NCBI GenBank assembly: GCA_012514745.1
Contig: JAAYZR010000002.1
Location: 104,962-168,961, forward strand
Direction: 5' to 3'
DNA: 64,000 nt
Origin: Candidatus Undivivens industriae
GTDB lineage: Bacteria > Omnitrophota > Gorgyraeia > Gygaellales > Profunditerraquicolaceae
Below, in pieces: positions 4,176-61,072 of this stretch. The notes under the pieces are model-generated. The model was not told the origin of the DNA. It was given only the letters and a program-made list of their open reading frames with translations, and made no database searches. Numbering within the stretch: the stretch's first letter is position 1; the number at the start of each line of letters is the position of its first letter. The translations under genes and the position numbers were made by a program.

Positions 4176-4236
4176 TGCCGGGGAGTTTTACTCAAACCGC
4201 GGAAATTCCCGGCTTTCAAGCCCAAAGGAGGAGCCG

Positions 4237-5433: not shown

Positions 5434-5571
5434 ATAAAATCACGAGCCGAAGCCGGACCGCCGCCCTTGGCGCGCGGATAATATAAACACCGCTTAGTTT
5501 TAAAATCATGAGCAAACCGCGGCCTTCAGGCCGCAAAGCGCCTAATTATTTGCAGCGCGAAGGAGGTTATT

Positions 5572-6496: not shown

Positions 6497-7402
6497 ATGA
6501 AACAGGCGGATCTTTTGATAATAGGAGGAGGGCCGGCGGGAGTCACGGCCGCCATCTATGCCGCCAGGAAGGGGCTGGATTTCATGATGATCAGCCGCGA
6601 CATCGGCGGACAGGCGGCCTTGAGCGGACGCATCGAGAATTACACCGGATGCCAGGTGGTTAGCGGTCCGGAGTTGACCGCAAGATTCGAAGAGCATCTG
6701 AAGAAATTCAGCATCAGGCTGGTGCAGCCTGAGACCGCTTTGTCCCTTACGCGGGACGGCGGGCGGTTCAGGGTCTCCGGAGAAAAAGATGCATATAGCG
6801 CCTCGGCGGTGATTGTTGCGACAGGGAAGCGTTCGCGCCTGCTGGGCGTTAAGGGAGAAAAGGAATTCCTCGGCAGGGGGCTTACCTATTGCGCGGTCTG
6901 CGACGGGCCTCTGTTCGCCGGCCGGGACGTCGCGGTCATCGGCGGCGGCAACTCGGCGCTTGACGCGGCTCTACAGATGTCGCGCATAGCCTCCAGGGTA
7001 TACGTGCTGGAATCTTCCGGGGGCTTCACGGCCGACAAGATCCTGGTAAACAGGCTTTCGGCCGCCGGCAACGTGGAGATTTATAAGAATGCCTCGGTAA
7101 TAGAGGTCATAGGCGGCCGTTTCGTGGAAGGCATACGGTTTTCGGCGCAAGGAAAAGAGTCGATACTGCCGGTGCGCGGGGTTTTCGTGGAGATAGGGCT
7201 TGCCCCCAATTCCGAATTCGCCGCCATCGCCTCCAGAAACGGAAAAGGGGAGATCAAGGTCGATTGTTCCAACGGAACCGACGTCCCCGGATTGTTCGCA
7301 GCCGGCGACGTTACCGATGTCCCGGAAAAACAGATCGTTATTGCCGCCGGCGACGGGGCAAAAGCCGCGCTTTCCGCCGCCAGATATCTGCTTTCTTTGT
7401 AA
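6497..7402 (+). CDS. trxB: thioredoxin-disulfide reductase
   Basis: GGGPAG FAD motif, CAVCDG redox-active disulfide, GGGNSA NADPH motif. Confidence 0.8.
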   Translation: MKQADLLIIGGGPAGVTAAIYAARKGLDFMMISRDIGGQAALSGRIENYTGCQVVSGPELTARFEEHLKKFSIRLVQPETALSLTRDGGRFRVSGEKDAYSASAVIVATGKRSRLLGVKGEKEFLGRGLTYCAVCDGPLFAGRDVAVIGGGNSALDAALQMSRIASRVYVLESSGGFTADKILVNRLSAAGNVEIYKNASVIEVIGGRFVEGIRFSAQGKESILPVRGVFVEIGLAPNSEFAAIASRNGKGEIKVDCSNGTDVPGLFAAGDVTDVPEKQIVIAAGDGAKAALSAARYLLSL

Positions 7403-8846: not shown

Positions 8847-8922
8847 CGCGTCTTCGCGGACCGGGCAAGGCCGTTTAAAACAGGATCACACATCAGTGGA
8901 ATGCGGCAAACGGGAGGATTAG

Positions 8923-9144
8923 ATGAGAGAAAAGGTTGAGGCAGTGCTGGAGAAGATCAAGCCGATGCTGGCGGCAGACGGCGGGAGCGTGGAGCTGGTG
9001 GATGTCGGCGACGATGGAGTGGTGAAAGTGAGACTCACCGGCAGTTGCGGATGCTGCGCTATGAGCCAGTTTACGCTGAAAATGGGCATAGAGCGCATCC
9101 TGAAACAGGAAGTGCCGGAAGTAAAAGAGGTGGTCTCGGTTTGA
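8923..9144 (+). CDS. NifU-like (Nfu) Fe-S scaffold domain protein
   Basis: 73 aa with CxxC in LTGSCGCCAMS. GGGAGG RBS. Confidence 0.7.
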   Translation: MREKVEAVLEKIKPMLAADGGSVELVDVGDDGVVKVRLTGSCGCCAMSQFTLKMGIERILKQEVPEVKEVVSV

Positions 9145-9165
9145 ACGGGCCAAAGTGAGGGGGAA

Positions 9166-10374
9166 ATGAAGACTATCAAGGAGATCAACGCTAAGATCGG
9201 CAGGGGAGACGCCGTGGTGGTCACTGCCGAGGAGATAATCGACCTGGTGGCTAAGAAAGGCGTCAGGAAGGTCGCCAGGGAGGTGGACGTGGTCACCACC
9301 GCCACTTTCGGGCCCATGTGTTCCAGCGGAGTTTATTTTAATATCGGCCACTCCAAGCCGAGGATCAAACTGGGTGGCGGCAGCTGCACGGTCAATGACG
9401 TGCCGGTTTACGCCGCTTTTGGCGCCGTGGACGTCTTCCTCGGGGCTGCCGCCGTGCCGGACGATGATCCCCGCAATAAGGTCTTCCCCGGAGAATTCAA
9501 ATACGGCGGCGGGCACGTGATACAGGAATTGGCAGCGGGCAAAGACATCCGTCTGGAGTGCAGCGCTTACGGTACCGACTGCTATCCCCGGAGAAAATTG
9601 GAGACACTGCTTAACATCAGGGACTTAAACGAGGCGGTTCTCTTCAATATGCGCAATTGTTATCAGAATTATAACGTTGCAGTCAACCTCTCCGGCAAGA
9701 CCGTTTTTACCTATATGGGGATGCTCAAACCGCGGCTCGGCAACGCGAATTATTCTTCCGCCGGGCAGCTTTCGCCTCTGCTGAAAGACCCTTATTACCG
9801 AACCATAGGCATAGGCACCCGTATCTTCCTCGGAGGCGGGATCGGTTACATAGCCTGGAATGGGACGCAACACAATCCCTGCGCCGAACGCGGCAGGAAT
9901 GGTATCCCTCTGGGAGGCGCGGGGACGCTTGCGGTTATCGGCGATCTGAAACAGATGAGCCCGGAATGGCTGGTCGGCACGAGTATGGCGGGTTACGGGG
10001 TGACGCTTTCCGTAGGCATCGGCGTGCCTATCCCGGTTCTTGACGAGGAAGTGGTCAGGAGGGCGGCGGTTACCGATGCCGAGATATACGCTCCGGTGGT
10101 CGATTACGGCCGCGATTACCCGCGAAGGTCATCTCGCATCATCGCTGAAGTAAGTTACGCGGAACTGCGTTCCGGGAGCATCAAATTACGCGGCAAGACC
10201 GTTCCCACGGGCAGCCTTTCCAGCTACGCGCGCGCGCGCAAGATAGCCGTGCTGTTGAAGACCAGGATCGAGGAGGGAGAATTCTTTCTCACCGAGCCTT
10301 CGGCGGCGCTGCCGGGGGCCGAGAGCGGATATAAGGTGAAACCGCTCAACGAAAGGCTTTACAAAAAGGAGTAA
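9166..10374 (+). CDS. DUF39 / COG1900 protein, sulfide-dependent homocysteine biosynthesis (MA1821 family)
   Basis: About 400 aa with the typical DUF39 length and composition. It is followed immediately by the NIL-ferredoxin partner gene. Confidence 0.65.
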   Translation: MKTIKEINAKIGRGDAVVVTAEEIIDLVAKKGVRKVAREVDVVTTATFGPMCSSGVYFNIGHSKPRIKLGGGSCTVNDVPVYAAFGAVDVFLGAAAVPDDDPRNKVFPGEFKYGGGHVIQELAAGKDIRLECSAYGTDCYPRRKLETLLNIRDLNEAVLFNMRNCYQNYNVAVNLSGKTVFTYMGMLKPRLGNANYSSAGQLSPLLKDPYYRTIGIGTRIFLGGGIGYIAWNGTQHNPCAERGRNGIPLGGAGTLAVIGDLKQMSPEWLVGTSMAGYGVTLSVGIGVPIPVLDEEVVRRAAVTDAEIYAPVVDYGRDYPRRSSRIIAEVSYAELRSGSIKLRGKTVPTGSLSSYARARKIAVLLKTRIEEGEFFLTEPSAALPGAESGYKVKPLNERLYKKE

Positions 10375-10390
10375 GGCAAGGAGTGGAAAG

Positions 10391-10798
10391 ATGATCTCTA
10401 GAAAAGTGGTTTTACATTTTCCCCGTAAACTGGTGGAACAGCCGATAGTTTTCAAACTGGTCAAGGATTACGGGCTTAATTTCAACATCCTTAAGGCTTA
10501 CGTGACCCCGGATGAGGAAGGACTGATGGTCCTGGAATTGAGCGGCGAAGAGCCGGCTTTCGAGAAGGGCTTGCATTATCTGAAGTCCTGCGGGGTGAAG
10601 ATACAGCCTTTGAGTCAGGACGTGGTAAGAAACGAGGAAAGATGCACCGATTGCGGTGTCTGCGTGCCTCTTTGTCCGGCGGGGGCTTTGCTGCCGGACA
10701 AAGAGAGCAGAGAGATCGTTTTTTTCGAGGATAAATGTATCGCCTGCGGGGTCTGTGTGCGTATTTGTCCGTTCAAGGCGATGGAAGTGCGTTTTTAA
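10391..10798 (+). CDS. NIL domain plus 2x[4Fe-4S] ferredoxin protein (MA1822 family partner of DUF39)
   Basis: N-terminal NIL-like domain; C-terminal CTDCGVCVPLCP and CIACGVCVRICP cluster motifs. Confidence 0.7.
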   Translation: MISRKVVLHFPRKLVEQPIVFKLVKDYGLNFNILKAYVTPDEEGLMVLELSGEEPAFEKGLHYLKSCGVKIQPLSQDVVRNEERCTDCGVCVPLCPAGALLPDKESREIVFFEDKCIACGVCVRICPFKAMEVRF

Positions 10799-11005
10799 CG
10801 CGCGGCGCATGATCCCGAATGCCGGCCGGATATTATTGACCGGTTTCAGATTCTGACTTGCAGTCCTGAATGTTCCTTCAACAGGATCGGACAGCCGAGC
10901 AGGCAAGGATTACCCCGGGGTTCTGTTTCGAATAGTCAGACAGCTCACTACAAGGGTTTGTCGAAAAATTGCCCGGGGAGCTTTATAACCTGCGGGGACA
11001 AAACA

Positions 11006-11980
11006 ATGCTTCGGGACAAGATAATCACATTGCTTAAAGAGCGTGAACGATTCGTGCGGGAGGAGGAGTTAACCTCCGCGCTTGGGATCAGCGCGGAGAA
11101 GTTGTGGGAAGAGATGCGCGGGCTGCGCGACAACGGTTACGTGATAGAAACCGTGCCGCATCTGGGTTATAAGATGACTTTTATTCCGGATCGTCTGATG
11201 CCGGCCGAGATAGAGAAGAACCTTACGACGGCCAAGATCGGCAGGCGCATAATTTATTTGGACAAGACCGTTTCGACCATGGACGACGTTTCACGCCTGG
11301 CTGTTGAAGGCGCGCAGGAAGGGACGGCGGTCGTCGCCGAGAGTCAGTCCGCAGGCCGCGGCAGGGCCGGCAGGAACTGGTTCTCCCCTGCCGGGAAAGG
11401 CATATATTTCTCCCTGCTGCTTCGTCCCTCCTCTTCAACTGGGCGTCTTTCCCTTCTTGCTCTGCTGGCGGCGGTAGCCGTTGCGGAAGCAGTGCATAGC
11501 GTTGCCGGCGTCGTTACCGGGATAAAATGGCCCAACGATATTCTGCTGGACGCCCGGAAGGCGGGAGGTATTCTTACCGAGGCCGGCAGCGGTGCCGGCG
11601 GCGCGCCTTACGTGGTGGTCGGCGTGGGTTTGAACGTGAACAACGAAACTGCCGAGTTGCTGCCGGGCACGGCCTCGATAGCTGAAGCGGCGGGAATGAA
11701 GGTGGACCGCGTGGCCCTGCTTCAGGAGATTTTCTTCAGGCTGGAAACCTATTATAAAGAATTTTGCCGCGGTGAGTACGCTTTGATAATCGATAAATGG
11801 CGCGGACTTAATTCCACACTGGGGAAAAGAGTCAAAGTAATCCTGCCCAGGGGGGTCATAGAGGGCGAGGCGGTGGATATAGAAGATGACGGCGGTCTGC
11901 TGGTCAGGAATGATTCCGGCTTGACGGAGAAAGTAACGGCAGGAGATGTGATACATTGCGGACTCCCGCAGCGCGGTTAA
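11006..11980 (+). CDS. birA: bifunctional biotin--[acetyl-CoA-carboxylase] ligase / biotin operon repressor
   Basis: N-terminal HTH, GRGRxGRxW motif (QSAGRGRAGRNWFS), KWPNDI. Confidence 0.8.
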   Translation: MLRDKIITLLKERERFVREEELTSALGISAEKLWEEMRGLRDNGYVIETVPHLGYKMTFIPDRLMPAEIEKNLTTAKIGRRIIYLDKTVSTMDDVSRLAVEGAQEGTAVVAESQSAGRGRAGRNWFSPAGKGIYFSLLLRPSSSTGRLSLLALLAAVAVAEAVHSVAGVVTGIKWPNDILLDARKAGGILTEAGSGAGGAPYVVVGVGLNVNNETAELLPGTASIAEAAGMKVDRVALLQEIFFRLETYYKEFCRGEYALIIDKWRGLNSTLGKRVKVILPRGVIEGEAVDIEDDGGLLVRNDSGLTEKVTAGDVIHCGLPQRG

Positions 11981-12100
11981 TCAAACCGCAGAAACCACCG
12001 GCTTTCAAGCCGGATTTGCGGAGCGGCCTTGTCCTTGGTTTCTCTAAGGACCGCCCCGGGTTTAGGGTTTGAGTGGGCCCCATTCGGCCTCCCGGGATAA
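11981..12100. repeat. GC-rich palindromic intergenic element, copy 2 (CAAACCGCAG box, CCGG-CTTTCAAG-CCGG hairpin, GTCCTT..AAGGAC hairpin)
   Basis: Shares an ordered series of motifs with 12893-12993 and partial copies at 4192-4223, 5514-5540 and 27867-27913. Confidence 0.6.
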
Positions 12101-12111
12101 CGAGACGATAA

Positions 12112-12873
12112 ATGACGCGAGTACCACGAGATAGGATTATATTATGCGTAATTCTCGCCGCCGCGGCGGCGGGCTGGTTTTTTAAAACCGTTATTTTCCG
12201 CTCCTCGGAACACGGTGGAGAGGCCGCTGCATTTTCTCCCGCGCAGGAAGACCCGATAAAAAAATACGTGGGGGAGAAGATCCTGTATCAGGTAAAACTC
12301 GGCATACTATCGGTGGGGACTGCTGAATTCGAACACAGGGATATTGCCGAACTGAACGGCGCCGCCGTTCATGTCGTGAATTTCCGCACTGTGCTGGCCC
12401 GGTTCAGGGATAATGAGCTTATTTATTGTCTCCCCGGCAGCCTGCTTCCGGTGCGCGTGGAAAGGATGATAGATTTCTGGCCGAAGAAAGAGAGGATAAC
12501 CGAGGAATACGACCAGACGGTTTTTTCTCTTAAGATAACAAGGGAAGAGGGGAAAAGCAGAAGCGAGCAGGTTATCAAGAAAGATAGGGCCATACATAAC
12601 GCCGTATTGCTGCCTTATTATGTCAGGACGATCCCCGGTCTTAAAGAAGGATGGCGGATGAACGTCCAGCTTCCGACGCAAAGCTTCATCGTTTCTCTGG
12701 ATTCCATAGAAGAAGTAAAGGTCCCGGCAGGCACTTTCAAGGCTTACCATTTTACGAGCGAACCGCGGAAATTCGAGATATGGATCTCCGCGGACGACAA
12801 AAGGATACCTTTAAAGTTGAAGGGGACGTCTTCCGCCGGATACACTCTTTTACTTACCGGTTACAGCATATAA
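12112..12873 (+). CDS. hypothetical exported protein (DUF3108-like)
   Basis: N-terminal hydrophobic segment. No catalytic motif was recognised. Confidence 0.45.
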   Translation: MTRVPRDRIILCVILAAAAAGWFFKTVIFRSSEHGGEAAAFSPAQEDPIKKYVGEKILYQVKLGILSVGTAEFEHRDIAELNGAAVHVVNFRTVLARFRDNELIYCLPGSLLPVRVERMIDFWPKKERITEEYDQTVFSLKITREEGKSRSEQVIKKDRAIHNAVLLPYYVRTIPGLKEGWRMNVQLPTQSFIVSLDSIEEVKVPAGTFKAYHFTSEPRKFEIWISADDKRIPLKLKGTSSAGYTLLLTGYSI

Positions 12874-12892
12874 TGGACAAACGCGCTGTTTA

Positions 12893-12993
12893 TTCAAACC
12901 GCAGAAATCGCCGGTTTTCAATCCGGGGATAGCTGCGGAGCGGACTTGTCCTTAACTTGTCTAAGGGGCGCCCCGGGCTTCGAGCCCGGGGGA
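12893..12993. repeat. GC-rich palindromic intergenic element, copy 3
   Basis: Reads TTCAAACCGCAGAAATCGCCGGTTTTCAATCCGG...CTGCGGAGCGG..CCTTAACTTGTCTAAGG..CCCCGGGCTTCGAGCCCGGGG, collinear with copy 2. Confidence 0.6.
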
Positions 12994-13009
12994 TTTCATT
13001 ATTATCGAT

Positions 13010-14029
13010 ATGTCAAAAACGGCGGCGGTCGCTTTAAGCGGGGGAGTGGATTCCGCGGCAGCGGCTTTATTACTTAAATCGCGCGGTTTTCGGGTAATCG
13101 GAGTTACCGCTTTTTTGTCGGGGAACGAAGATATCTGCGCGGCGAGGCGCGCGGCGGCAGAGATCGGCATTGAGCACCGGGTATTCCGTCTGGAAAAAGA
13201 ATTCGAGCGCAAGGTTATCGATAACTTCCGCGCGGAATACGCCAGGGGGCGGACACCCAATCCCTGCGTGCGATGCAACCGCCACATCAAATTCGGGCTG
13301 CTGCGCGCCAGGGCCCTTTCCCTCGGGCCGGATTATTTCGCCACCGGGCATTACGCGAAAATAGAAAACGGCCGCCTGAAAAAAGCGGCCGACTCAGGAA
13401 AAGACCAGAGTTATTTTCTCTACAGTCTTGCTCCGGAGTCGCTCAAGAACACGCTTTTTCCGCTCGGCGGTTATACCAAGGAGGAAGTGCGCCGGTTTGT
13501 CTCCGCCGCGGGGTTGAGCGTTTCTTCCGGCAAGGAGAGCCAGGACGTATGTTTTGTCCCTGACGGCGATTACCGTTCTTTCCTTGCCTCAGTTCCGGGA
13601 TGCGGCTGCCTGCCCGGGGAATTCGTTGATACCGGGGGAAAAGTCCTCGGACGTCATAAAGGGGTGTCGTTTTATACCGTCGGGCAAAGACAGGGATTAG
13701 GTATTTCTTCCGGCCGTCCTTTGTACGTTAAAGAGGTGGACGCGCGGCGCAACAGGGTGGTGCTGGGCGGGAGACAGGAGGTTTTGGCGGCGGCTTTCAT
13801 CGTATACAACCCGAGCTTTCCAGGCGGGCCGTTGAAAAAGAAGGTTGTCCTTAACGTGAAGATACGTTATAATCATACGGAACAACCAGCCGAAATAACG
13901 CCATCCGGCAACACACTAAAAATTGTTTTTCGTTTCCCCCAATTCGCGGTTACTCCAGGACAATCGGCGGTGATTTACAGAGGAGATGTAGTCGTCGGGG
14001 GAGGCATAATAAGAAAGGTATTGGACTGA
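13010..14029 (+). CDS. mnmA: tRNA-specific 2-thiouridylase
   Basis: PP-loop SGGVDS and the catalytic Cys region PNPCVRCN. Confidence 0.85.
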   Translation: MSKTAAVALSGGVDSAAAALLLKSRGFRVIGVTAFLSGNEDICAARRAAAEIGIEHRVFRLEKEFERKVIDNFRAEYARGRTPNPCVRCNRHIKFGLLRARALSLGPDYFATGHYAKIENGRLKKAADSGKDQSYFLYSLAPESLKNTLFPLGGYTKEEVRRFVSAAGLSVSSGKESQDVCFVPDGDYRSFLASVPGCGCLPGEFVDTGGKVLGRHKGVSFYTVGQRQGLGISSGRPLYVKEVDARRNRVVLGGRQEVLAAAFIVYNPSFPGGPLKKKVVLNVKIRYNHTEQPAEITPSGNTLKIVFRFPQFAVTPGQSAVIYRGDVVVGGGIIRKVLD

Positions 14030-14030
14030 C

Positions 14031-14975
14031 ATGTCACCGGTAAGGAATGCGGACAACATCGGCAAAAAGATACAGGAGTTGAAGAAAAAAAAGAATGCGG
14101 TAATTCTGGCGCATAATTATCAACTCCCCGAGGTGCAGGATATAGCGGATTTCACCGGAGATTCCCTGGAATTAAGCCGTATCGCCGCCGGGACGAAAGC
14201 CGATGTGATCATTTTCTGCGGGGTGCATTTTATGGCCGAAACTGCCGCCGTACTGTCTCCGGAGAAAAAAGTGATAATGCCTGACATAACCGCCTCTTGT
14301 CCGATGGCCGGGATGATCACCAGGGAGGAACTGCGCGGACTGAAGGAGAAACACCCCGGCGCTGTCAGCGTCGGATACGTCAATACATCGGCCGCGGTGA
14401 AAGCCGAGCTGGATATCTGCTGCACCTCCACCAATGCCGTCGGGGTGGTGAAGACCGTGGCGGCAAAGATGGAAAAAGAGGGCCGCCGGCCGCAAATAAT
14501 CTTCGTCCCCGATAAATATCTGGCTTCCTACGTGAGCGCCCAAACCGGGATAAAGCTGATCGCCTGGGACGGGTTCTGTCCGACCCATATAAAGATAAGA
14601 CCGGAGGACATAAAAAAAGAGAAAAGATTTCATCCCGAAGCGCGCGTCCTGGCGCATCCGGAATGTCTGCCTTCCGTTATAGCCCTCGCCGATGCCGTCC
14701 TTTCCACCAGCGGGATGTCCAAATACGCCCGTTCTTCTTCCGCGCGCGAGTTCATTGTCGGGACTGAAGTCGGCATTATCTACAGGTTGAAGAAAGACAA
14801 CCCGGGCAAGGAATTCTATCCGGCGGCCGAGGCGGCGGTGTGTCCCAACATGAAGCGCACTACGCAGGAAAAAGTGCTTCTGGCGCTGGAGACCCTGCGC
14901 GGAGAGGTGAAGGTCCCGCAGGATATACGCAACCGCGCCCGCAGGGCCATAGACCGGATGCTGGAGACCTTTTGA
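14031..14975 (+). CDS. nadA: quinolinate synthase A
   Basis: Three conserved Cys ligands and an ILAHNYQ-type N-terminus. Confidence 0.85.
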   Translation: MSPVRNADNIGKKIQELKKKKNAVILAHNYQLPEVQDIADFTGDSLELSRIAAGTKADVIIFCGVHFMAETAAVLSPEKKVIMPDITASCPMAGMITREELRGLKEKHPGAVSVGYVNTSAAVKAELDICCTSTNAVGVVKTVAAKMEKEGRRPQIIFVPDKYLASYVSAQTGIKLIAWDGFCPTHIKIRPEDIKKEKRFHPEARVLAHPECLPSVIALADAVLSTSGMSKYARSSSAREFIVGTEVGIIYRLKKDNPGKEFYPAAEAAVCPNMKRTTQEKVLLALETLRGEVKVPQDIRNRARRAIDRMLETF

Positions 14976-14982
14976 ACCGCAG

Positions 14983-15654
14983 ATGAATAATATCCCGGCG
15001 ATCTACGAGGACGATCATCTGGCCGTTTTCAATAAACCGCCCGGACTACTCACCATACCGGCTCCAGGAGGCAGGGAGAAAGATTTTACTTCCCTTCTAA
15101 ACTCCCGTAACAGGGGAGAGGAAGGTTTGCCGCGTTTTCATCCTTGCCACCGCCTCGACCGCGAAACCTCCGGTTTGATAATTTATGCCAAGGGTAAGTC
15201 CGCCCAGAAGAAAATGATGGATATCTTCCGCGGCAGGGCGGTGGAGAAGACGTATCTGGCCGTGCTGCACGGCAGCCCGGCGGAAGGAAAAAAAGCTATC
15301 CGCAGTCCGATAGAAGGGAAACCGGCCTCGACTTATTATGAAGTGCTGCTGCGGCGTCCGGCTTTCTCCGTGGTCTGCGCGTCCCCGGAAACCGGACGCA
15401 CCAATCAGTTGCGCATACATTTTACCGGAATCGGTCATCCGATCGTTGGCGAGGCGAGGTTCGTCTTCAGAAGGGATTTTGTTCTGAAGGCAAAGAGAGT
15501 GATGCTGCACGCCTGGCAGTTGGAATTCAGGCACCCTTATTCCGGCAAGGGCATCGTTTTGTCCGCTCCATTGCCTGTCGATATACGTAATTTTTTCCTG
15601 AAACACGGCGTGGACCCGGGACAATTCACGCCGCCGCGCGGCGCGCCGATTTAA
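14983..15654 (+). CDS. RluA-family pseudouridine synthase
   Basis: HRLDRETSGL catalytic Asp motif. Confidence 0.75.
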   Translation: MNNIPAIYEDDHLAVFNKPPGLLTIPAPGGREKDFTSLLNSRNRGEEGLPRFHPCHRLDRETSGLIIYAKGKSAQKKMMDIFRGRAVEKTYLAVLHGSPAEGKKAIRSPIEGKPASTYYEVLLRRPAFSVVCASPETGRTNQLRIHFTGIGHPIVGEARFVFRRDFVLKAKRVMLHAWQLEFRHPYSGKGIVLSAPLPVDIRNFFLKHGVDPGQFTPPRGAPI

Positions 15655-15657
15655 ATA

Positions 15658-15685
15658 TTGATTTATACGTCCGTTCTAATATAAT
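15658..15685 (+). promoter_or_regulatory. sigma70-type promoter TTGATT-16-TATAAT, ending 7 nt before the uppP ATG (possible leaderless mRNA)
   Basis: -35 at 15658-15663, -10 at 15680-15685, ATG at 15693. Confidence 0.5.
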
Positions 15686-15692
15686 AACTGGC

Positions 15693-16436
15693 ATGATAAA
15701 ATATATTCTTCTCGGCGCGGTGCAGGGAATGACTGAGTTTTTTCCTGTTAGCAGTTCCGCGCACCTCGTCATATTCCAAAAGCTTCTCGGCATAGACGGG
15801 CGCGGGCTGGTTTTCCCCATCGTTCTTCATCTGGGGACGCTTGCGGCGACCGTGCTGTATTTTCGCCGCGATATCCTGCGGACGCTTTCGGACAGGAGAC
15901 AGTTGCTGCTGGCGGCGGCGGTCACGCTGGTCACCGGCGTTATCGCTTTCCCGCTCAAAGGTTTTGCTGAAAAGATTTTTTTCTCTCCCGTGCCGGCGGC
16001 TTTTACCCTGCTGGCCACCGGAACGGCGCTTATCCTGACGGGGAGGCTGCGCGTTTCCGGCAAAAAGGATATTTCTTTTGGTGACGCGGCTTTAATGGGA
16101 GCGGCACAGGGGATAGCGGTGCTGCCCGGGATATCCCGTTCCGGTGCCACCATCTCCGCGCTTCTTTTCAGGGGTATTGAACGCGAGACGTGTTTTAAAT
16201 TCTCGTTCATTTCCGGGATACCGGCCGTGGCCGGCGCAGCCCTGCTGGACGCCCGCGAGATTACCGCGGTCTGCGTGGAATCATGGAGGGAGCCCCTGGC
16301 CGGGTTCCTTGCCAGTTTTATTTTCGGCCTGGCCGCGCTTGCGCTGTTGAGACGTTTGATTTTAAGGTCCAAATTGCCGTATTTCGGGTATTATTGTCTG
16401 CTGGCGGCGGCGGTAATCCTTATTTTTCTGAGATGA
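15693..16436 (+). CDS. uppP: undecaprenyl-diphosphatase
   Basis: BacA/UppP signature FPVSSSAHL and multiple TM segments. Confidence 0.85.
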   Translation: MIKYILLGAVQGMTEFFPVSSSAHLVIFQKLLGIDGRGLVFPIVLHLGTLAATVLYFRRDILRTLSDRRQLLLAAAVTLVTGVIAFPLKGFAEKIFFSPVPAAFTLLATGTALILTGRLRVSGKKDISFGDAALMGAAQGIAVLPGISRSGATISALLFRGIERETCFKFSFISGIPAVAGAALLDAREITAVCVESWREPLAGFLASFIFGLAALALLRRLILRSKLPYFGYYCLLAAAVILIFLR

Positions 16437-17332
16437 GCATACTTGTTCTGGGAACAGTGGCTTTGGATACGGTCAAAACGCCGCACGGCCGGCGTCATTA
16501 TATGCTGGGGGGTTCCGCCGTTCATTTTTCCATGTCCGCCAGGCTTTTCACGCACGTCAACCTGGTGGCTACCGTGGGCGAGGACTTCCCTTCCCAGCAT
16601 CTGGATTTTCTCTCCGGTAAAGGCATAAATCTGGATTCCCTGATGAAGACGGCCGGCGTTACCTTCAAGTGGAGCGGGGAATACAAAGGCGATATGAACA
16701 CGGCGCTTACCCTTAAAACCGAGCTGGGAGTGCTCTCCACCTTCAGCCCGAAGGTAAGAACCGGCCAGCGCGGCATCCGCAACATTTTTCTCGCCAATGT
16801 CGATCCGGATATCCAGAAACAGCTCCTTGGACGTATGCATTCGGCGCGGCTGGTCGGCCTTGACAGCATGAATTACTGGATACATAATAAACGGGCTTCG
16901 CTGTTAAGACTGCTTAAGAAAGTGGATATTTACGTGGCCAATGACCGCGAAGCGCGCGATCTTTCCGAAGAGGAGCACCTTGTGAGCGCGGCCAGGCGGC
17001 TGCAGCGCATGGGCCCGCGCATAGTGCTCATAAAGAAGGGAGAGCACGGAGTCTTGCTTTACGGCCCGGATCTTTTTTTCTCCCTGCCGGCTTATCCGGT
17101 GGATAAGGTCGTGGACCCCACCGGAGCGGGCGACACTTTCGCGGGAGGGTTCATGGGGTATCTCGCCGGCTGCGGGCGTACGGACAGGAAGGCGTTTAAA
17201 AGAGCGATTGTTTACGGCACGGTTTGTGCTTCTTTCAACGTGGAGGGGTTCGGACTGGAACGCAGCGGCAGGCTCACCCTGGCGGATATCCGCGGCAGGA
17301 TGAAATGTTTCAAGGAAATAAGCGCTTTTTGA
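16432..17332 (+). CDS. PfkB-family carbohydrate kinase (ribokinase-like)
   Basis: C-terminal DPTGAGDTFAGGF anion-hole motif. ATGA start/stop overlap with uppP. Confidence 0.7.
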
Positions 17333-27442: not shown

Positions 27443-27476
27443 CCGGAAGGAAAGTGATTCTTCCGGTTTTTATTTT
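27443..27476 (+). terminator. intrinsic terminator-like hairpin (CCGGAAG..CTTCCGG plus T-tract) inside the leader between the promoter and PilZ gene 1
   Basis: 7-bp GC-rich stem followed by TTTTTATTTT. Confidence 0.5.
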
Positions 27477-27534
27477 GGGAAAGAGGCCTTCTCCAGGGGG
27501 ACGGAAACGTGTTGTATCTCTCCACGCAGGATAT

Positions 27535-27861
27535 ATGGTAAACCAGGACGAAAGAAGATTTTTTGTCAGGATTCCGGTCAGTTTTCCATTGAAATTCTCT
27601 TTGACCGGTTCCTCCTTGCAGTGTATAGGGACCGTCAGCGACGTGAGCATCCGCGGGCTGGGGATATTTACAGAGGCTTCGTTGTCGCGGGGCGCTTCTC
27701 TGGATTGCTGGCTTCTTCTTTCCGACAAAAACCGGCCTTTCTACACGAAAGGCGAAGTGATTTGGACTATACAGGAAGGGGAGAAAACCCTTCGCGCCGG
27801 TATCAGCCTTTCCAATCCGGTCACAACAGGCGTGGCGCACGTTCTTAGACAAAACAGTTAA
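27535..27861 (+). CDS. single-domain PilZ protein (c-di-GMP receptor family)
   Basis: RxxxR (RRFFVRIP) and D-x-S-x-x-G (DVSIRGLG) motifs. Start trimmed to ATG 27535. Confidence 0.65.
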   Translation: MVNQDERRFFVRIPVSFPLKFSLTGSSLQCIGTVSDVSIRGLGIFTEASLSRGASLDCWLLLSDKNRPFYTKGEVIWTIQEGEKTLRAGISLSNPVTTGVAHVLRQNS

Positions 27862-27866
27862 TCCAG

Positions 27867-27913
27867 CCGCAGAAACCCCCGGGCTTGAAAGCCGGGGATG
27901 GGTGCGGTTTGAG
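27867..27913. repeat. palindromic element related to the CAAACCGCAG family (CCGCAGAAA...CCCGGGCTTGAAAGCCGGGG...TGCGGTTTGAG)
   Basis: Outer CCGCA/TGCGG and inner CCCGGGCTT/AAGCCGGGG stems. The 3' end is the reverse complement of the family's 5' box. Confidence 0.5.
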
Positions 27914-46900: not shown

Positions 46901-47680
46901 ATGAAAGCGGAGATCGAAGGCTGGATACGGGAACGCATTAAAAGCGCGGGGGCTAAAGGGGCGCTGGTAGGTTTAAGCGGGGGAATAGACTCTTCCGTGG
47001 CTGCCGCCCTGTTATGTTCCTCCCTCGGCAGAAAACGGGTTTTGGCTTTGATACTGCCCGCGCACAGTTCGCGTCAGGACGCGGAGGACGCGGAGTTGAT
47101 AGTTTCCAGATTCCGCCTGCGGTCGTTGACGGTGGATATCTCCAAGATATACGACCTTTTGCTGAAAAAAATGCTTCTTCCTCCGGGGTTAAACGCCGCG
47201 AAGCAGCGCGAGAAGACCGCCGGAGCCAATCTGAAATCGAGGCTCAGGATGTCCGTCTTTTATTATTACGCGAACCGTCTGAATTATCTGGTGTGCGGGA
47301 CCGGCAACCGTTCCGAGATAATGACGGGTTATTTCACCAAATACGGGGACGGCGCCGCCGATATCCTTCCTCTCGGCGGGCTTCTGAAGCGTCAGGTGAG
47401 ATCGCTGGCGGAGGAACTGGGGGTGCCACGGCGTATAATAGATAAGCCCCCCAGCGCCGGGCTCTGGCCGGGCCAGACGGATGAGGCGGAAATGGGAGTG
47501 ACTTACGGAGAGATCGACGCAGTCCTCTCGGGTACCGCCGGAAGGAATAAAACGTTTTGCGGCGGGAAGACGGCATCGCGTATTCATAAAATGCGGTCGC
47601 TGTCCGAACATAAAAGAATGCCGGCCGCGGTTTTTATCCCTTCCGGGGGCGGCAAGCCGAACGCCGGGGAGCTTCATTAG
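46901..47680 (+). CDS. nadE: NH3-dependent NAD+ synthetase
   Basis: PP-loop GLSGGIDSS; single-domain form of about 260 aa. Confidence 0.8.
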   Translation: MKAEIEGWIRERIKSAGAKGALVGLSGGIDSSVAAALLCSSLGRKRVLALILPAHSSRQDAEDAELIVSRFRLRSLTVDISKIYDLLLKKMLLPPGLNAAKQREKTAGANLKSRLRMSVFYYYANRLNYLVCGTGNRSEIMTGYFTKYGDGAADILPLGGLLKRQVRSLAEELGVPRRIIDKPPSAGLWPGQTDEAEMGVTYGEIDAVLSGTAGRNKTFCGGKTASRIHKMRSLSEHKRMPAAVFIPSGGGKPNAGELH

Positions 47681-53875: not shown

Positions 53876-54029
53876 TTAAACACATTACGAAGGCGTAATA
53901 GACAAAGGCGTTTGCTGAATCACCGCAGATGCCTTTTTTGTTTTCCCGGATAACGTGGTCCTGAAAGCCGCAACACAGCTTTCAGGATTTTTTTTACCCG
54001 CTGAGAAGCGGTTTAAGGATGGGTTCATC

Positions 54030-55622
54030 GTGGAAAAGATCGCTTTGGCACAGATCAACTGCACGGTAGGGGGTGTGCGGGACAATGCGCAGAAGATCAT
54101 CGAATTCAGCCGGCTGGCGGCCGCCGAAGGCAATAAAATGGCCGTTTTCCCGGAGTTGGCCGTCACCGGTTATCCTCCGGAAGACTTGCTGCTAAAACCC
54201 TCTTTTATCGCCGACAACCTGGAGCAATCCAGGAGAATAGTCGCTTCCGCCGGCGATATGATTGTCATTTTCGGGTTCGTTGATACCGACGGAGAAAGGT
54301 TATATAACGCCGCCGCCGCGGCCGTCCGCGGTAAACTCGCCGGCGTGTACCGTAAAGTCCTGCTGCCTAACTACGGCGTGTTCGACGAAAAACGTTATTT
54401 CGCTCCGGGTAAAGAGGCCCCGGTTTTTAGGATCGACGGTCTATCTATGGGGATCAGTGTCTGCGAGGATATTTGGCACGCGTCCGGCCCGGTATACGAA
54501 CAGGCCAGGACCGGGGCGGAGGTCCTGGTCAATATCAGCGCTTCTCCCTATCAAATCGGCAAGATCGCAGAACGCGGGGATACCCTTTGCCGCTGCGCCG
54601 CGGAGTGCGGAGTGCCGATAGTTTATGTCAATCTTGTGGGAGGGCAGGATGATCTGGTGTTCGACGGAGGGAGCATGTTCATATCGTCTGCCGGCGGGGT
54701 GCTATCGCGCGCCGCTGTCTTCAAGGAAGAGCTCTTTACCCTGGAGCGGGCTGTCTGCCGCCGGCCGGAATATTCTTTGGAGCAGGAAGAAGAGGTTTAT
54801 TCCGCTCTGACTCTCGGTTTGAAAGATTATTTTCGCAAGAACGGTTTTAAAAAGGCGGTGCTGGGCCTTAGCGGCGGGATAGATTCGGCACTCACCGCTG
54901 CACTGGCCGCCGACGCGCTCGGCAGCGAAAACGTGACCGGCGTCTTCCTACCGGCCAGGTATACTTCCAAACAGTCGCATGACGACGCCCTAAAGCTTGC
55001 CCGCGGGCTGGGCATCGGGTTCAAGCGTATATCCATCGAGCCGATTTTTCGGCTTTACCTGTTGAGCCTGGAGGAACAGTTCAGCGGACTGCCGAGGGAT
55101 TGCACGGAAGAAAATCTGCAAGCGCGTATACGAGGCGCGCTGCTTATGGCTCTGTCCAATAAATTCGGGTGGCTGGTGCTCGCCACGGGAAACAAGTCGG
55201 AGATGAGTGTGGGGTATTCCACCATCTACGGTGATCTCGCCGGAGGGTTCGCGGTTTTAAAGGACGTGCCGAAGACTCTTATTTACAGGCTGGTCGCGTA
55301 CCGCAACCGCCGTTCCCCGGTCATACCGGAAAGCGTTATATCACGTGAACCCACTGCTGAACTTAGCCCGGGGCAGAAGGACAGCGATACCCTTCCGCCT
55401 TATGATGTGCTGGACCCCATATTGAAGCTGTATATTGAAGAAGATGCTTCGGCGCAGGATATCATCGCCGCCGGCTTCCAGGAAAAAGACGTGCGCAGGG
55501 TGGTTTCGCTGGTAGACGGCAGCGAATATAAGCGTCGGCAGTCCCCTCCCGGGATAAAGATCACATCCAGGGCGTTCGGTAAGGACCGCAGGATGCCGAT
55601 CACCAACGGACAAAAACCATGA
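54030..55622 (+). CDS. nadE: glutamine-dependent NAD+ synthetase (nitrilase domain plus NAD synthetase domain)
   Basis: N-terminal CN-hydrolase domain (KIALAQIN...) and a C-terminal PP-loop GLSGGIDSA. Start set at GTG 54030 with AAGGATGGG RBS. Confidence 0.75.
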   Translation: MEKIALAQINCTVGGVRDNAQKIIEFSRLAAAEGNKMAVFPELAVTGYPPEDLLLKPSFIADNLEQSRRIVASAGDMIVIFGFVDTDGERLYNAAAAAVRGKLAGVYRKVLLPNYGVFDEKRYFAPGKEAPVFRIDGLSMGISVCEDIWHASGPVYEQARTGAEVLVNISASPYQIGKIAERGDTLCRCAAECGVPIVYVNLVGGQDDLVFDGGSMFISSAGGVLSRAAVFKEELFTLERAVCRRPEYSLEQEEEVYSALTLGLKDYFRKNGFKKAVLGLSGGIDSALTAALAADALGSENVTGVFLPARYTSKQSHDDALKLARGLGIGFKRISIEPIFRLYLLSLEEQFSGLPRDCTEENLQARIRGALLMALSNKFGWLVLATGNKSEMSVGYSTIYGDLAGGFAVLKDVPKTLIYRLVAYRNRRSPVIPESVISREPTAELSPGQKDSDTLPPYDVLDPILKLYIEEDASAQDIIAAGFQEKDVRRVVSLVDGSEYKRRQSPPGIKITSRAFGKDRRMPITNGQKP

Positions 55623-56131
55623 GTTACCCCGACCTGCTTAAGAGGCTGTCCCCGCGGCTGAAGGGAATAACGTATAAACTTAACGGGAAATTCACCTTTT
55701 TCAACGAAGAAGATCTTTTCCAGGAGGCGGCGGTCAGGCTTTGGCAGGAATTCGAGCTCGGGCGGCTTGCCGGCAAGACAGACAGTTACATACTTCAGGG
55801 ATGTTATTTTCATCTCAAGAATTACATAAGAAAAAAATACGACAAAAAGAATACACTGAGCCTGGAGGCGTTGCTGACCGAAGAGCCCGGGGCCGAGGAC
55901 AGGCTGTCGTGCCTTTCTTCGCCTGAGCCGTTCGAATCGCTGCACGCCGGAGTCGTGGAGAAGGAGATGCGTTCTGCGTGCCGCGATAAAAGAGAACACG
56001 AAATATTCCATTTGAGCCTGCGGGGTTTCACGGTTAGGGAGATCGCGGCCGAACTCGGCGTCTCGCATGTGCTGGTGGTAAGACTGCGAAAAAGGATGAG
56101 GGCAAAACTTTTATCTCTGGCCGCGGAGTGA
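55619..56131 (+). CDS. sigma-70-family (ECF-like) RNA polymerase sigma factor
   Basis: Region-2-like segment EDLFQEAAVRLWQ and a region-4 HTH LRGFTVREIAAELGVSHVLVVRL. Confidence 0.6.
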   Translation: MSYPDLLKRLSPRLKGITYKLNGKFTFFNEEDLFQEAAVRLWQEFELGRLAGKTDSYILQGCYFHLKNYIRKKYDKKNTLSLEALLTEEPGAEDRLSCLSSPEPFESLHAGVVEKEMRSACRDKREHEIFHLSLRGFTVREIAAELGVSHVLVVRLRKRMRAKLLSLAAE

Positions 56132-56270
56132 AGAGGTGTTACCAGAAACCGGATTTCTTTACTTGTAATAGTGAAGCTCTCCGGGTTCTAACCCGGTTTC
56201 ACCTTAGCTTATGCACAAGGATGTGCGTTAAATAGAAACAACGGCCTGTTATAAAGGCTTGAGCTTAAAT

Positions 56271-56328
56271 AAGACAGAGGCGTCTTGCTTCCGGGATCCA
56301 ACGATCGGAGGCAAGACGTTTTTTATTG
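56271..56328 (+). terminator. leader attenuator in front of glnB-amt-glnK: small AGAGGC-loop hairpin overlapping a 13-bp-stem intrinsic terminator plus T6
   Basis: AAGAC-AGAGGC-GTCTT at 56271-56286. The terminator is CGTCTTGCTTCCG..CGGAGGCAAGACG followed by TTTTTT, spanning 56281-56324. Confidence 0.55.
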
Positions 56329-56358
56329 TATCCGCGCGGTCTATCCGGGAGGTGCGGG

Positions 56359-56697
56359 ATGAAAAAAATAGAAGCGGTGATAAGATCGGAAAAAGTCGGA
56401 GACGTGCGCAAGGCGCTGGACAAGACGTGCTTCTCCGGATTGATGCTTACCCAGGTGGACGGGCACGGTAAGCAGAAGGGTACGATGCAGGAATGGCGCG
56501 GAGACATTTATCGTGTGGGGATACTCCCCAAGACCAAGGTGGAGGTCGTGGTGGAAGATAAGGATCTTGATACCGTTGTCCGCGTAATCATGGACGCCGC
56601 CAGGACGGGAGAAATCGGAGACGGTAAGATATTCGTTTATCCTGTCGAAGAGGTTTACCGCATCAGGACGGCGGAAAAGGGAAGCGCGGCATTGTAA
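56359..56697 (+). CDS. glnB: nitrogen regulatory protein P-II
   Basis: 112 aa (MKKIEAVIR..., T-loop region, GDGKIFV). GGGAGG RBS. Confidence 0.85.
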   Translation: MKKIEAVIRSEKVGDVRKALDKTCFSGLMLTQVDGHGKQKGTMQEWRGDIYRVGILPKTKVEVVVEDKDLDTVVRVIMDAARTGEIGDGKIFVYPVEEVYRIRTAEKGSAAL

Positions 56698-56814
56698 TCC
56701 ATTTAATCAAACCGCCCCCTCGCCCAGAAATCCCCGGGCGCTTGTCCAAGGCATTGCGACGAGAGGATTGTCCAACGGGCAGACCGGGGAGTTTCACTAT
56801 TGAAAGGAGACGAG

Positions 56815-58041
56815 ATGAATTCCGGTGATACGGCATGGGTTTTGATTTCTTCGGCTCTTGTAATGTTGATGACGCCCGGCCTGGCCTTCTTTTACGGGGG
56901 TATGGTTAGGAAGAAGAATGTCCTTAGCATCCTGATGCAGTGTTTTATAGTCCTTTGTCTTTTGAGCGTTCAATGGGTGCTTTACGGTTACAGTATTTCC
57001 TTCGCACCCGGGGACGGCTTCTGGGGCGGGTTCAAATGGGCGGGGCTTGCCGGCGTCGGGCTGGAGCCTTACGCGGATTATTCGGCCACTATCCCGCACC
57101 AGGCTTTTATGATTTTCCAGGCTATGTTTGCCATAATTACTCCCGCTTTGATACTGGGAGCGTTCGCGGAAAGGATGAAGTTTTCCGCATTTTTGGCTTT
57201 CATATTGCTCTGGGTGACTTTCGTATACGGGCCGGTCTGCCATTGGGTATGGGGAATGGGCGGCTGGTTGAGAAAACTCGGAGCCCTTGATTTTGCAGGG
57301 GGCACAGTTGTGCATATCAACGCCGGTATCGCGGCTTTAGCAACGGCTATTGCTATCGGCAGGCGTAAGAATTTGGAGAAGAACGTTCCGACCCCGCATA
57401 ATATGCCGTTTGTAGTGTTGGGTACCGCTTTATTATGGTTCGGCTGGTTCGGGTTCAACGCCGGCAGCGCCCTGGCGGCCAACGGCCTCGCGGTAAACGC
57501 GTTCGTGGTCACCAACACCGCTGCCGCTGCCGCGGGTTTGAGCTGGGCATTTATAGAATGGATTAAGAACGGTAAACCTACCGTTCTCGGCGTGGCCAGC
57601 GGAGCGGTGGCGGGACTGGTCGCTATCACCCCGGCGGCGGGTTTCGTAAGCGTGATCCCTGCCATCTTCATCGGTCTGTTGGTAAGCCTGTTCTGTTTTG
57701 TTTTTGTGAGCGAGGTCAAAAGGAAGTTCGCTTATGACGATTCTCTCGATGCTTTCGGCGTGCATTGCGTGGGTGGAGTCTGGGGGGCCCTTGCGACCGG
57801 ATTGTTCGCTTCTAAAGCGGTCAATCCTGCCGGGGCGGACGGCCTGTTTTTCGGCAATCCGCAGCAATTCCTGGTGCAGATCGCGGCAGTCGCGGTAACG
57901 CTGGTCTATTCTTTCGCGGTCAGCATGGTTATCTACAAGATAGTAGATTCCGTGATGGGAGTACGCGTGGGAGAGAAAGAAGAATCCATTGGCCTTGATC
58001 TTACCCAGCACCACGAAAGAGCGTATACAATATTGGAATAA
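56815..58041 (+). CDS. amt: ammonium transporter
   Basis: Amt signature DTAWVLISSALVMLMTPGLAFFYGG. AAAGGAGA RBS 5 nt upstream of ATG 56815. Confidence 0.85.
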   Translation: MNSGDTAWVLISSALVMLMTPGLAFFYGGMVRKKNVLSILMQCFIVLCLLSVQWVLYGYSISFAPGDGFWGGFKWAGLAGVGLEPYADYSATIPHQAFMIFQAMFAIITPALILGAFAERMKFSAFLAFILLWVTFVYGPVCHWVWGMGGWLRKLGALDFAGGTVVHINAGIAALATAIAIGRRKNLEKNVPTPHNMPFVVLGTALLWFGWFGFNAGSALAANGLAVNAFVVTNTAAAAAGLSWAFIEWIKNGKPTVLGVASGAVAGLVAITPAAGFVSVIPAIFIGLLVSLFCFVFVSEVKRKFAYDDSLDAFGVHCVGGVWGALATGLFASKAVNPAGADGLFFGNPQQFLVQIAAVAVTLVYSFAVSMVIYKIVDSVMGVRVGEKEESIGLDLTQHHERAYTILE

Positions 58042-58068
58042 TTCCTTGTAAGGATAAGGGGGATATAA

Positions 58069-58410
58069 ATGAAACTGGTAATAGCCATAATCCAGCCGGA
58101 CAAGCTGGAGGAAATCAAAGAGGAGCTTTACAGGTCGGAGATCAATCTTATTACCGTCAGCGAAGTGCTCGGCCACGGCCGCCAGAAAGGCGTAACGGAG
58201 TTCTACCGCGGGGCAAAGGAGACCGGGAATCTGTTGAGAAAGATCCGTATTGAAATAGCCGTGAACGACACTTTCCTGGAACCGGCAATAAAAGCGATAG
58301 TGGCCGGGGCCAAGACCGGCGAGACCGGAGACGGTAAGATATTCGTGCTGGATATGAAGGAGTGCGTGCGTATACGCACGGAAGAACGCGGTTCCACGGC
58401 GATAGGGTAG
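58069..58410 (+). CDS. glnK: nitrogen regulatory protein P-II (GlnK-type, amt-linked)
   Basis: 113 aa; MKLVIAIIQP..., GDGKIFV. Confidence 0.85.
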   Translation: MKLVIAIIQPDKLEEIKEELYRSEINLITVSEVLGHGRQKGVTEFYRGAKETGNLLRKIRIEIAVNDTFLEPAIKAIVAGAKTGETGDGKIFVLDMKECVRIRTEERGSTAIG

Positions 58411-58558
58411 GGATATAGAAAAAGAGGGATTGAGCGCCGCCGGGGACGGCAGGAAGAAAAGAGAGGGAGAAAGAGGCAAGTGAAGAAAAACAGGGGTCAG
58501 GAGAAAGGATTTTTTCTCCCTCCTCCCTTTTTAACGCGCGACGCCGTTTACTATATAC

Positions 58559-61063: not shown

Positions 61064-61072
61064 CTTCCCTTT

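Follow-up and report, generated by a model that had tools for sequence, protein, structure and literature searches.

Rickettsia palindromic elements (RPE), reportedly described by Ogata et al. in Science in 2000, are short, multi-copy, selfish hairpin repeats that lie between genes and also in frame within them, where they add a peptide segment without destroying the open reading frame (ORF). The BOX elements of Streptococcus pneumoniae are modular, with the order boxA - boxB(n) - boxC. Here, we report a family of small, modular, hairpin-rich repeats in a 64,000-nucleotide stretch of Candidatus Undivivens industriae (phylum Omnitrophota; GenBank assembly GCA_012514745.1, contig JAAYZR010000002.1, positions 104,962 to 168,961, forward strand), hereafter the window.

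Among mobile elements with comparable ends, insertion sequence (IS) IS608 inserts 3′ of TTAC, which is kept on the left flank, with no gain or loss of DNA; it carries subterminal imperfect hairpins in direct orientation at both ends, is cleaved on the left 19 nt 5′ of the left hairpin and on the right at TCAA, 10 nt 3′ of the right hairpin, and favours the lagging-strand template (PMC3201880, PMC5934647, PMC5027513). The 4 nt 5′ of each IS608 hairpin act as guides (left guide GL, AAAG; right guide GR, GAAT) that pair with the cleavage sites, with the pairs A+16:T-3 and A+17:T-4 (PMC5934647). Enterobacterial RU-1/ERIC repeats (PMC2759123) and Coxiella QMITEs (PMC5896051) are small, non-autonomous and sometimes intragenic, giving peptide segments or altered gene ends.

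The Omnitrophota repeats have no sequence in common with BOX, RPE, MITEs (miniature transposable elements with inverted repeats), IS200/IS605 or repetitive extragenic palindromic (REP) elements; their behaviour combines known kinds. They are very probably a family of mobile selfish repeats, and the overall account that we prefer, of small, non-autonomous, modular mobile DNA repeats rather than regulatory RNA, is likely.

Full copies, empty sites and in-frame insertions

Two full copies pointed out in an earlier note on the window are present where it put them, on the plus strand at 11981 to 12096 (copy A) and 12894 to 12999 (copy B), and share 78% column identity on alignment. Copy A starts at the base after a TTAA (11977 to 11980) whose TAA is the stop codon of a birA-like gene (ORF 10958 to 11980). 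Its left box TCAAACCGCAGAAA is followed by the hairpin CCGGCTTTCAAGCCGG, for which CCGCAG/TTGCGG forms the closing stem; after a second hairpin GTCCTTGG..CTAAGGAC comes a long, GC-rich hairpin at the terminus (CCCGGG..CCCGGG). Copy B, flanked on the left by TTAT, lies between the DUF3108 gene and mnmA (ATG at 13010) and ends 10 nt before the ATG; the same left box is followed by a first hairpin CCGGTTTTCAATCCGG, a second hairpin (CCTTA..TAAGG) and a right hairpin CCCCGGGCTTCGAGCCCGGGG with the tail GATTTCAT.

Synteny around both copies is kept in three relatives (L037, L038 and L039), all without copies A and B. L037, with a DUF3108 protein 82% identical, has the birA stop (...GGTTAA), a 25-nt spacer and the DUF3108 start; its empty birA site reads ...GCGCGGTTAA|ACGGC, and its DUF3108-mnmA spacer is an unrelated 50 nt. 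In this empty site the stop codon is already present, which makes TTAA the target rather than a piece of the element. L038 retains birA-DUF3108, but nadA comes next. Copy A is present in L028, 18 to 20% diverged. Judged from synteny, copies A and B were acquired after the split from the relative with the 82% identical DUF3108. Intergenic sites that are empty in close relatives speak against a functional structured RNA, and the absence of copies from the same operon junctions in otherwise syntenic relatives speaks against a host function.

Three further observations concern the neighbourhood of these copies. DUF3108 read as an integron gene cassette with attC sites was rejected, since the gene is syntenic between birA and mnmA in L037 and L039, which have no elements at these places. 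A 99%-identical strain (L056:3600-3630 against window 11955 to 11985) has a 9-nt deletion at the birA end, at the copy A junction (window ...GGACTCCCGCAGCGCGGTTAA, L056 ...GGACTCCTTTAA), which alters the birA C terminus. In public gene calls mnmA starts 105 nt downstream of the ATG at 13010, although the ORF from 13010 holds the SGGVDS PP-loop motif and gives a Pfam tRNA_Me_trans match from residue 5; copy B, just upstream, may have misled the start prediction.

An insertion with both junctions comparable to empty sites was found inside a gene. A PMT_2 glycosyltransferase ORF in L021 (WOFB22) contains an in-frame element that gives 65 extra residues inside the PMT_2 domain, and the Pfam PMT_2 match ends at the insertion point. 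The 92% identical homologue P0002 has a 22-residue version at the same point, and the homologues P0003 (88%), P0004 and P0005 (59% and 42% identity) show a clean 65-residue gap with no insert. Empty-site DNA reads CGTTTTAA|CGGCGA (CGT TTT AA|C GGC) and filled-site DNA TTTAA|TCAAACCGCAG...GGGGAGCTTCAT|CGGCGG, the insert being 195 nt or 66 nt long. The junction has no duplicated base, and the ends, TCAAACCGCAG... on the left and ...GGGGAGCTTCAT on the right, do not form inverted repeats. Two further in-ORF copies are read in the same frame (..N|QTAEIPGFQAG..), one in an ORF open for at least 3,316 codons. Of about 57 unique copies, just 3 lie inside ORFs. A copy that inserts into xTT-AAx codons and keeps the frame open can persist as an in-frame peptide insertion; copies in frame within ORFs also count against a structured RNA.

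One of these ORFs is an example of repeat insertion tolerated by the giant genes of the phylum. L055 (9,950 nt) has one frame open throughout, for at least 3,316 codons, with an in-frame A-C type element (modules are named below), and L024, a shorter stretch of the same locus, encodes WD40 and HEAT repeats.

Individual copies decay. L028 is the orthologue of window positions 8904 to 16914 (93.9% identity), and between the two the eight flanking genes differ at 12.0% of four-fold sites (133/1111) and at 2.7% of codon positions 1+2, against 17.9% for copy A (core 20.5%) and 18.1% for copy B. Because this divergence exceeds that of four-fold sites, copies A and B are not under constraint and, on these distances, drift at an approximately neutral rate. 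The closing stem and the second hairpin of copy A are disrupted in L028. Family-wide conservation together with decay of single copies marks a mobile element, whereas a riboswitch or small RNA (sRNA) locus would show the reverse, and single copies conserved no better than neutral also weigh against a host role.

The earlier note had further read the second hairpins of copies A and B as differing at compensating positions. This did not hold: between copy A (GTCCTTGG/CTAAGGAC) and copy B (GTCCTTAA/CTAAGGGG), GG changes to AA on the 5′ side and AC to GG on the 3′ side, and the changed bases pair with unchanged partners, so that the changes are one-sided. Read directly, two of them keep just wobble or A-T pairs and two disrupt pairs. 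Covariation in the stem closing the first hairpin (CCGCA/TGCGG versus CCCA/TGGG) was also considered and rejected, as hybrids such as L044 break the pattern.

Extent, target site and build of the family

Scanned with an exact pattern, a collection of one genome per species yielded 22 loci, every one of them in three Candidatus Omnitrophota metagenome-assembled genomes (MAGs; JBAZDY01, 12 loci; WOZK01, 9; JBAZGE01, 1). A metagenome scan added 47 loci, about 5 of them chance-like and without a hairpin and about 42 real copies. All named matches of the pattern scans are Omnitrophota MAGs, and there are 57 unique copies in total, beside unrelated genes. Both collection scans demanded the exact box, so the uniformity of the left end is partly ascertainment. 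A finding that only the window's copies exist was to have counted against a family; about 55 further distinct copies lie outside the window.

Carriers are close relatives, with 92 to 96% nucleotide identity where orthologous stretches could be compared. L037 (about 86% identity) has variant copies only, at other sites, and the more distant L038 and L039 have no copies in the 8 to 20 kb examined. From this distribution, the family is a recent, lineage-restricted expansion in a narrow Omnitrophota clade. Viral contigs, PLSDB plasmids and INPHARED phages gave 0 matches, and a phage or plasmid origin was rejected. For the window copies and a full composite element, Rfam gave nothing at gathering score and, at E ≤ 10, only chance-level matches to terminator-like sRNAs. 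Mimicry of tRNA or tmRNA was rejected, since ARAGORN and Rfam found only two ordinary tRNAs, elsewhere in the window. In a full-text search of the available library, no paper connected Omnitrophota with repeats of this kind.

Beyond this family, at least one or two further families of small repeats occur in these genomes (L011:7642-7756; L064:2694-3208; L054:9647-9904; L084 near 6871-6996), one with GGTTACCGTAACCGAAAACCGATACGGGTTTCGGTA-like units and another with CCTCCCC...GGGGAGG; both vary in presence and absence between relatives.

With the flank unconstrained in the scan, TTAA precedes 18 of 25 copies, and the other 7 follow TTAC, TTAT, TAAA or CCAC, the last being the right end of another family unit. 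In 16 of the 57 unique copies, an upstream ORF of at least 100 codons has the TAA of TTAA as its stop codon; TTAA counts in this set are inflated by the inclusion of TAATC in the metagenome pattern. Since TTAA is often T plus the TAA of a stop codon, many copies lie exactly at gene ends. The top strand of the element is on the G-rich strand in 22 of 23 loci, with gene orientation biased likewise, and GC skew is positive over the whole window.

Copies are mosaics of about 33 to about 330 nt with the fixed module order A-(B)n-C-D-T. Module A is TCAAACCGCAGAAA plus the hairpin CCGGCTTTCAAGCCGG; its 37 nt recur unchanged in copies from different genomes. Module B is present as 0 to 4 tandem units of about 40 nt, each with a bulged hairpin and a mini hairpin (TTCRC-TYGT-GYGAA); its shape is retained across different stem sequences, as would also be expected of a structured RNA. 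Module C comprises ..ATGCGGAGCAG, which pairs back to the box, and a hairpin CCCTTAG..CTAAGGG; module D is a long hairpin with the end GGGGTTAATC; and module T is GAGAAAGAAA plus the hairpin CCCCGGGCTTCAGCCCGGGG and the tail AGCTTCAT.

The two constant ends are thus, on the left, TCAAACCGCAGAAA followed by a GC-rich hairpin and, on the right, another GC-rich hairpin that is similar to the first and oriented the same way, with GAAA before it and the 8-nt tail AGCTTCAT after it. Copies A and B of the window are A-C-T types without B modules. Extra inserts inside the loop of the last hairpin occur in L035, L051, L072 and at window 56707 to 56797. The smallest complete elements are 46 nt (L050, L084) and a lone box plus hairpin is 33 nt (L049); these minimal, REP-like units of box plus hairpin (33 to 46 nt) are mostly intergenic. 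All-against-all BLAST found shared units of no more than about 330 nt between non-orthologous loci, with no gene or transposase in common; the elements are therefore non-autonomous.

The window itself holds at least five copies in 64 kb, and the five solid ones are all on the plus strand. A repeat search of the window put four plus-strand copies of the 5′ module, at 4188, 11977, 12890 and 27858, in one group. We also searched it with profile hidden Markov models (HMMs) of the left and right modules, the left-module HMM being trained solely on copies outside the window. The left-module HMM recovered 12890 (E = 6e-12), 11977 (3.4e-11), 4188 (1.9e-10) and 27858 (1.6e-3); the copies at 4188 and 27858, which the earlier note had listed as partial or inverted, are thereby confirmed as members. 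It also picked 56703 to 56737 (E = 2.4e-5), a copy that by reading reaches 56797. The right-module HMM matched 12969 to 13002 (E = 1.4e-5), 56172 to 56204 on the minus strand (5.3e-5) and 47660 to 47679 (5e-4). The plus-strand copy at 56703 to 56797 and the minus-strand hairpin at 56172 to 56204 had not been listed in the earlier note.

Its remaining site, 5514 to 5540, fell away as a family member: the left-module HMM gave no match there, the right-module HMM gave E = 1.7, and the fold z score is -1.2. The plus-strand stretch 5513 to 5540 is CAAACCGCGG plus GCGGCC-TTCA-GGCCGC and has only the 10-mer CAAACCGCGG in common with the family; this 10-mer also occurs within a coding region at 9726, and its exact and one-mismatch matches number 19 against 11.3 ± 3.2 expected.

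The truncated plus-strand copy at 4188 to 4224 lies between a TPR gene and a flavodiiron (FprA-like) gene and is made up of the flank TTAC and the left box TCAAACCGCGGAAA, after which only part of a hairpin (CCCGGCTTTCAAGCC) is present, with the host ribosome-binding site directly 3′; the same site in L038 is empty, with an 11-nt spacer. At 27858 to 27913 (plus strand) a mini copy begins at a TTAA (27858 to 27861) that carries the TAA stop of the PilZ ORF 27454 to 27861; TCCAGCCGCAGAAA and the hairpin CCCCCGGGCTTGAAAGCCGGGG are followed by GTGCGGTTTGAG, which pairs back to the box. Both ORFs flanking it give Pfam PilZ matches.

Between a short ORF (56326 to 56697) and the next gene, the plus-strand copy at 56703 to 56797 reads TTAA (56703 to 56706), TCAAACCGC-CCCCTCGCCC-AGAAA, a CCCCGGGC...GaCCGGGG hairpin with a 43-nt loop insert, and the tail AGTTTCAC; its orthologue in L051 (flanks 95% identical) is without the 10-nt CCCCTCGCCC insert. 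A solo right-end-type module at 56172 to 56204 on the minus strand (GAAA CCGGGTTAGAACCCGG AGAGCTTCAC) also has an orthologue in L051. A weak remnant of uncertain membership at 47620 to 47680 (plus strand) ends ...CGCCGGGGAGCTTCAT then TAG, with the HMM match confined to 47660 to 47679. ORF 46901 to 47680 (..NAGELH-stop) terminates inside this right-end-like remnant, and an old element may be the source of its last codons and stop.

Close to the solo module, a 37-nt promoter-like stretch (..TGTTACCA..TTTACTTGTA) occurs twice, at 56131 to 56167 and 58638 to 58674, in two intergenic regions 2.5 kb apart. Each copy is upstream of one copy of a 46-nt coding repeat (56591 to 56636; 58301 to 58346), and the first adjoins the minus-strand solo module.

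Candidate mechanism and alternative explanations

The repeats may move as single strands in "peel and paste" transposition, with a Y1 HUH transposase of the IS200/IS605 TnpA or RAYT type acting in trans as the catalyst. The enzyme would read the end hairpins, and the cleavage sites would be located by pairing with the 4 nt 5′ of each hairpin. We put the chance of such an HUH mechanism at about even; it is one that we infer, because no partner transposase was found. From the left end to the first hairpin the distance is 14 to 15 nt, and from the last hairpin to the right end it is 8 nt; each of the two hairpins is preceded by (A)GAAA. We applied the IS608 pairing scheme with C-4 paired to G2, C-3 to G1, C-1 to G4 and A.A at C-2/G3, under which both published IS608 pairs become Watson-Crick. 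Under this partly inferred scheme, the right guide GAAA fits the terminal TCAT at all 4 positions in 12 unique copies, among which there are three different stem sequences. In a variant module, GGAG fits CCAC, again at 4 of 4 positions, two bases of the guide and two of the terminal tetranucleotide having changed together. With the same pairing script, hairpins unrelated to the family scored 0 to 2.

Several points weigh against our preferred account. An insertion could be set against an empty site at both of its junctions in a single case. The C-1 and C-2 assignments are our own deduction from the published IS608 guide/cleavage pairs. The right end of copy B fits the guide rule at 1 of 4 positions, and at the left end the TTAA/AAAT fit needs the hairpin foot at CCCC, while many copies have a shorter stem or one that includes the T. 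The strand bias is confounded with gene orientation and could equally stem from selection. In L051, 95% identical to window 53925 to 61656, a 233-nt block of D, T and A modules (L051:5268-5500) sits at window position ~56325 (56320 to 56330), where the window is empty, and has TTA at each border, in contrast to the TTAA|TC junctions at other sites; this TTA-bounded indel shows that other processes also reshape these clusters. Nor was a transposase with these ends found by tblastn with IS608 TnpA, IS200 TnpA and Escherichia coli RAYT queries in the sequence covered, about 0.79 Mb, a weak negative. The one Y1 gene found is not flanked by repeats in three genomes (L052, L087 and L088).

That gene (L052:8836-9843) was the single, weak tblastn match and is the sole Y1_Tnp gene in the 0.79 Mb (Pfam Y1_Tnp, 4e-12; NCBIfam REP_Tyr_transpos, 69.5 bits, below the cut-off of 80). 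Its family is conserved across many Omnitrophota contigs, apparently at one copy per genome and vertically inherited; as a conserved host gene without flanking repeats, it was rejected as the autonomous parent element. The Y1_Tnp (IS200/RAYT-like) protein has 320 to 335 aa with a C-terminal hydrophobic coiled-coil-like tail, and its family gave 234 matches at E ≤ 1e-8, all taxon-named ones being Omnitrophota/Omnitrophica or members of the PVC group. A c-di-GMP-I riboswitch (RF01051 or RF03167, 53 to 65 bits) lies directly upstream of the gene (L052:8705-9843; L087:2670-3969; L088:2810-3981), and in L087 and L088 a giant (4,670- to 5,078-aa) Kelch/DUF2341 protein gene lies downstream. An HUH transposase domain under second-messenger control is unusual.

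It is quite unlikely, on our estimate, that the repeats are mobilised as single-stranded DNA by this single-copy, riboswitch-preceded, RAYT-like protein, whose gene is followed in two of the three genomes by one for a giant surface protein, in a host-regulated REP/RAYT-type system with an IS608-like guide/cleavage code. If they were, a second messenger would govern a domesticated HUH transposase that seeds hairpin repeats genome-wide, in frame into giant genes too.

A separate IS110-family (DEDD) transposase gene is present at L038:5602-6531, on the opposite strand and in the place of the PALP (cysteine synthase-like) gene, within the otherwise syntenic Rrf2-PALP-NifU-HcyBio cluster of this more distant relative.

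Repeats of mobile origin may since have come to serve the host, as has been suggested for REP elements and bacterial interspersed mosaic elements (BIMEs), for instance as mRNA 3′-end stabilisers, partial operon terminators or sites for nucleoid or topology proteins. This would be compatible with our preferred account of mobile repeats and would suit copies that sit exactly at stop codons and between operon genes, the very stable hairpins and the density of at least five copies in 64 kb, but we consider it unlikely. Besides the neutral drift and the empty operon junctions described above, most right hairpins are followed by AGCTTCAT with no U-tract. A secondary host use has no positive support beyond position and stability.

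The classical MITE alternative, by which the repeats would be deletion derivatives of a DDE-transposase IS, with terminal inverted repeats (TIRs) and a TA or TTAA target duplication, appears very improbable. The elements are indeed small, non-coding and multi-copy; the box and anti-box ends of the mini copy at 27862 to 27913 look TIR-like and lie between TTAA and TAA, and the L051 block has TTA at both borders. However, the single resolved site shows no duplication and no inverted repeats at the ends, the end hairpins are direct rather than inverted, and strong bias to one strand would not be expected of end-symmetric cut-and-paste elements.

It is highly improbable that the family is a functional structured RNA (a riboswitch or leader, an RNA-processing site or a small RNA) that selection maintains for its RNA structure. 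Folded as single strands, copies A and B do better than shuffled sequences (z = -2.4, minimum free energy -54.9 kcal/mol, and z = -4.1, respectively), as does the 27858 copy (z = -2.1), although not the truncated 4188 copy (z = 0.06); copies lie in sense orientation between co-directional genes, and the terminal hairpin of copy B is terminator-like. Against this, no Rfam family matches beyond chance level, the genes downstream are unrelated (flavodiiron protein, DUF3108, mnmA, PilZ, a tRNA, a glycosyltransferase interior), and, as set out above, close relatives have no element at the same sites, divergence between orthologous copies outpaces that of four-fold sites, with the stems of copy A broken in L028, and some copies are read in frame. 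Of the four options that the earlier note had listed, REP/MITE-like repeats thus stood, and the structured-RNA or regulatory reading did not.

Comparison with described repeat families

As mobile repeats, these elements matter for annotation: odd hairpins between genes, contig breaks and spurious ORFs in Omnitrophota MAGs are explained by them, and the mnmA start may be one example. For evolution, they offer dense markers of recent insertion for strain-level population genetics and typing and are a source of new peptide segments in the very large proteins of these organisms. With guide and cleavage site covarying at the right end, oligonucleotides and a single purified protein would suffice for a direct test of the mechanism, and the family would gain interest should the HUH guide code or the riboswitch-controlled Y1 protein turn out to play a part.

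RU-1/ERIC and QMITEs differ from the present family in having terminal inverted repeats and, usually, target duplications, neither of which is seen at the resolved junction. Like REP/BIME (PMC2817692), the repeats described here are GC-rich imperfect palindromes with a conserved 5′ head, lie mostly outside genes at gene 3′ ends, form mosaics and are confined to narrow lineages. Unlike them, they have a 14-nt box for a head instead of a GTAG-type tetranucleotide, and their units are arranged head to tail and not as inverted REPIN doublets. Like REP/RAYT genomes (PMC2817692), those studied here encode an apparently single-copy, vertically inherited, RAYT-resembling Y1 protein, although in three genomes no repeats flank its gene, which also falls short of the NCBIfam cut-off.

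With IS200/IS605 elements and their non-autonomous derivatives (palindrome-associated transposable elements, PATEs), the family shares a tetranucleotide on the left flank (here TTAA), the lack of a duplication and of TIRs, similar imperfect end hairpins in direct orientation and a strand bias, here confounded with gene orientation. The fit of the right guide under the pairing scheme, covarying between two subfamilies, resembles IS608, and the cleavage distances are 14 to 15 versus 19 nt on the left and 8 versus 10 nt on the right. Unlike IS200/IS605, no tnpA or tnpB with these ends was found, and the elements are far smaller, with nested modules and an ambiguous left-guide fit.

Like BOX, the repeats have ordered modules, with constant terminal ones and variable tandem internal ones (here 0 to 4 B units of about 40 nt); they differ in having no sequence relation to BOX, more module types, nesting in hairpin loops and resolved insertion junctions. 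In-frame residence, here in a PMT_2 glycosyltransferase, is shared with RPE, from which the family is set apart by unrelated sequence and host phylum, modular build with variable internal hairpins, a TTAA-3′ insertion point and asymmetric ends. For the biology of mobile DNA, the family thus unites a BOX-like build, RPE-like in-frame residence and IS200/IS605-like, duplication-free TTAA-3′ insertion in an uncultured phylum.

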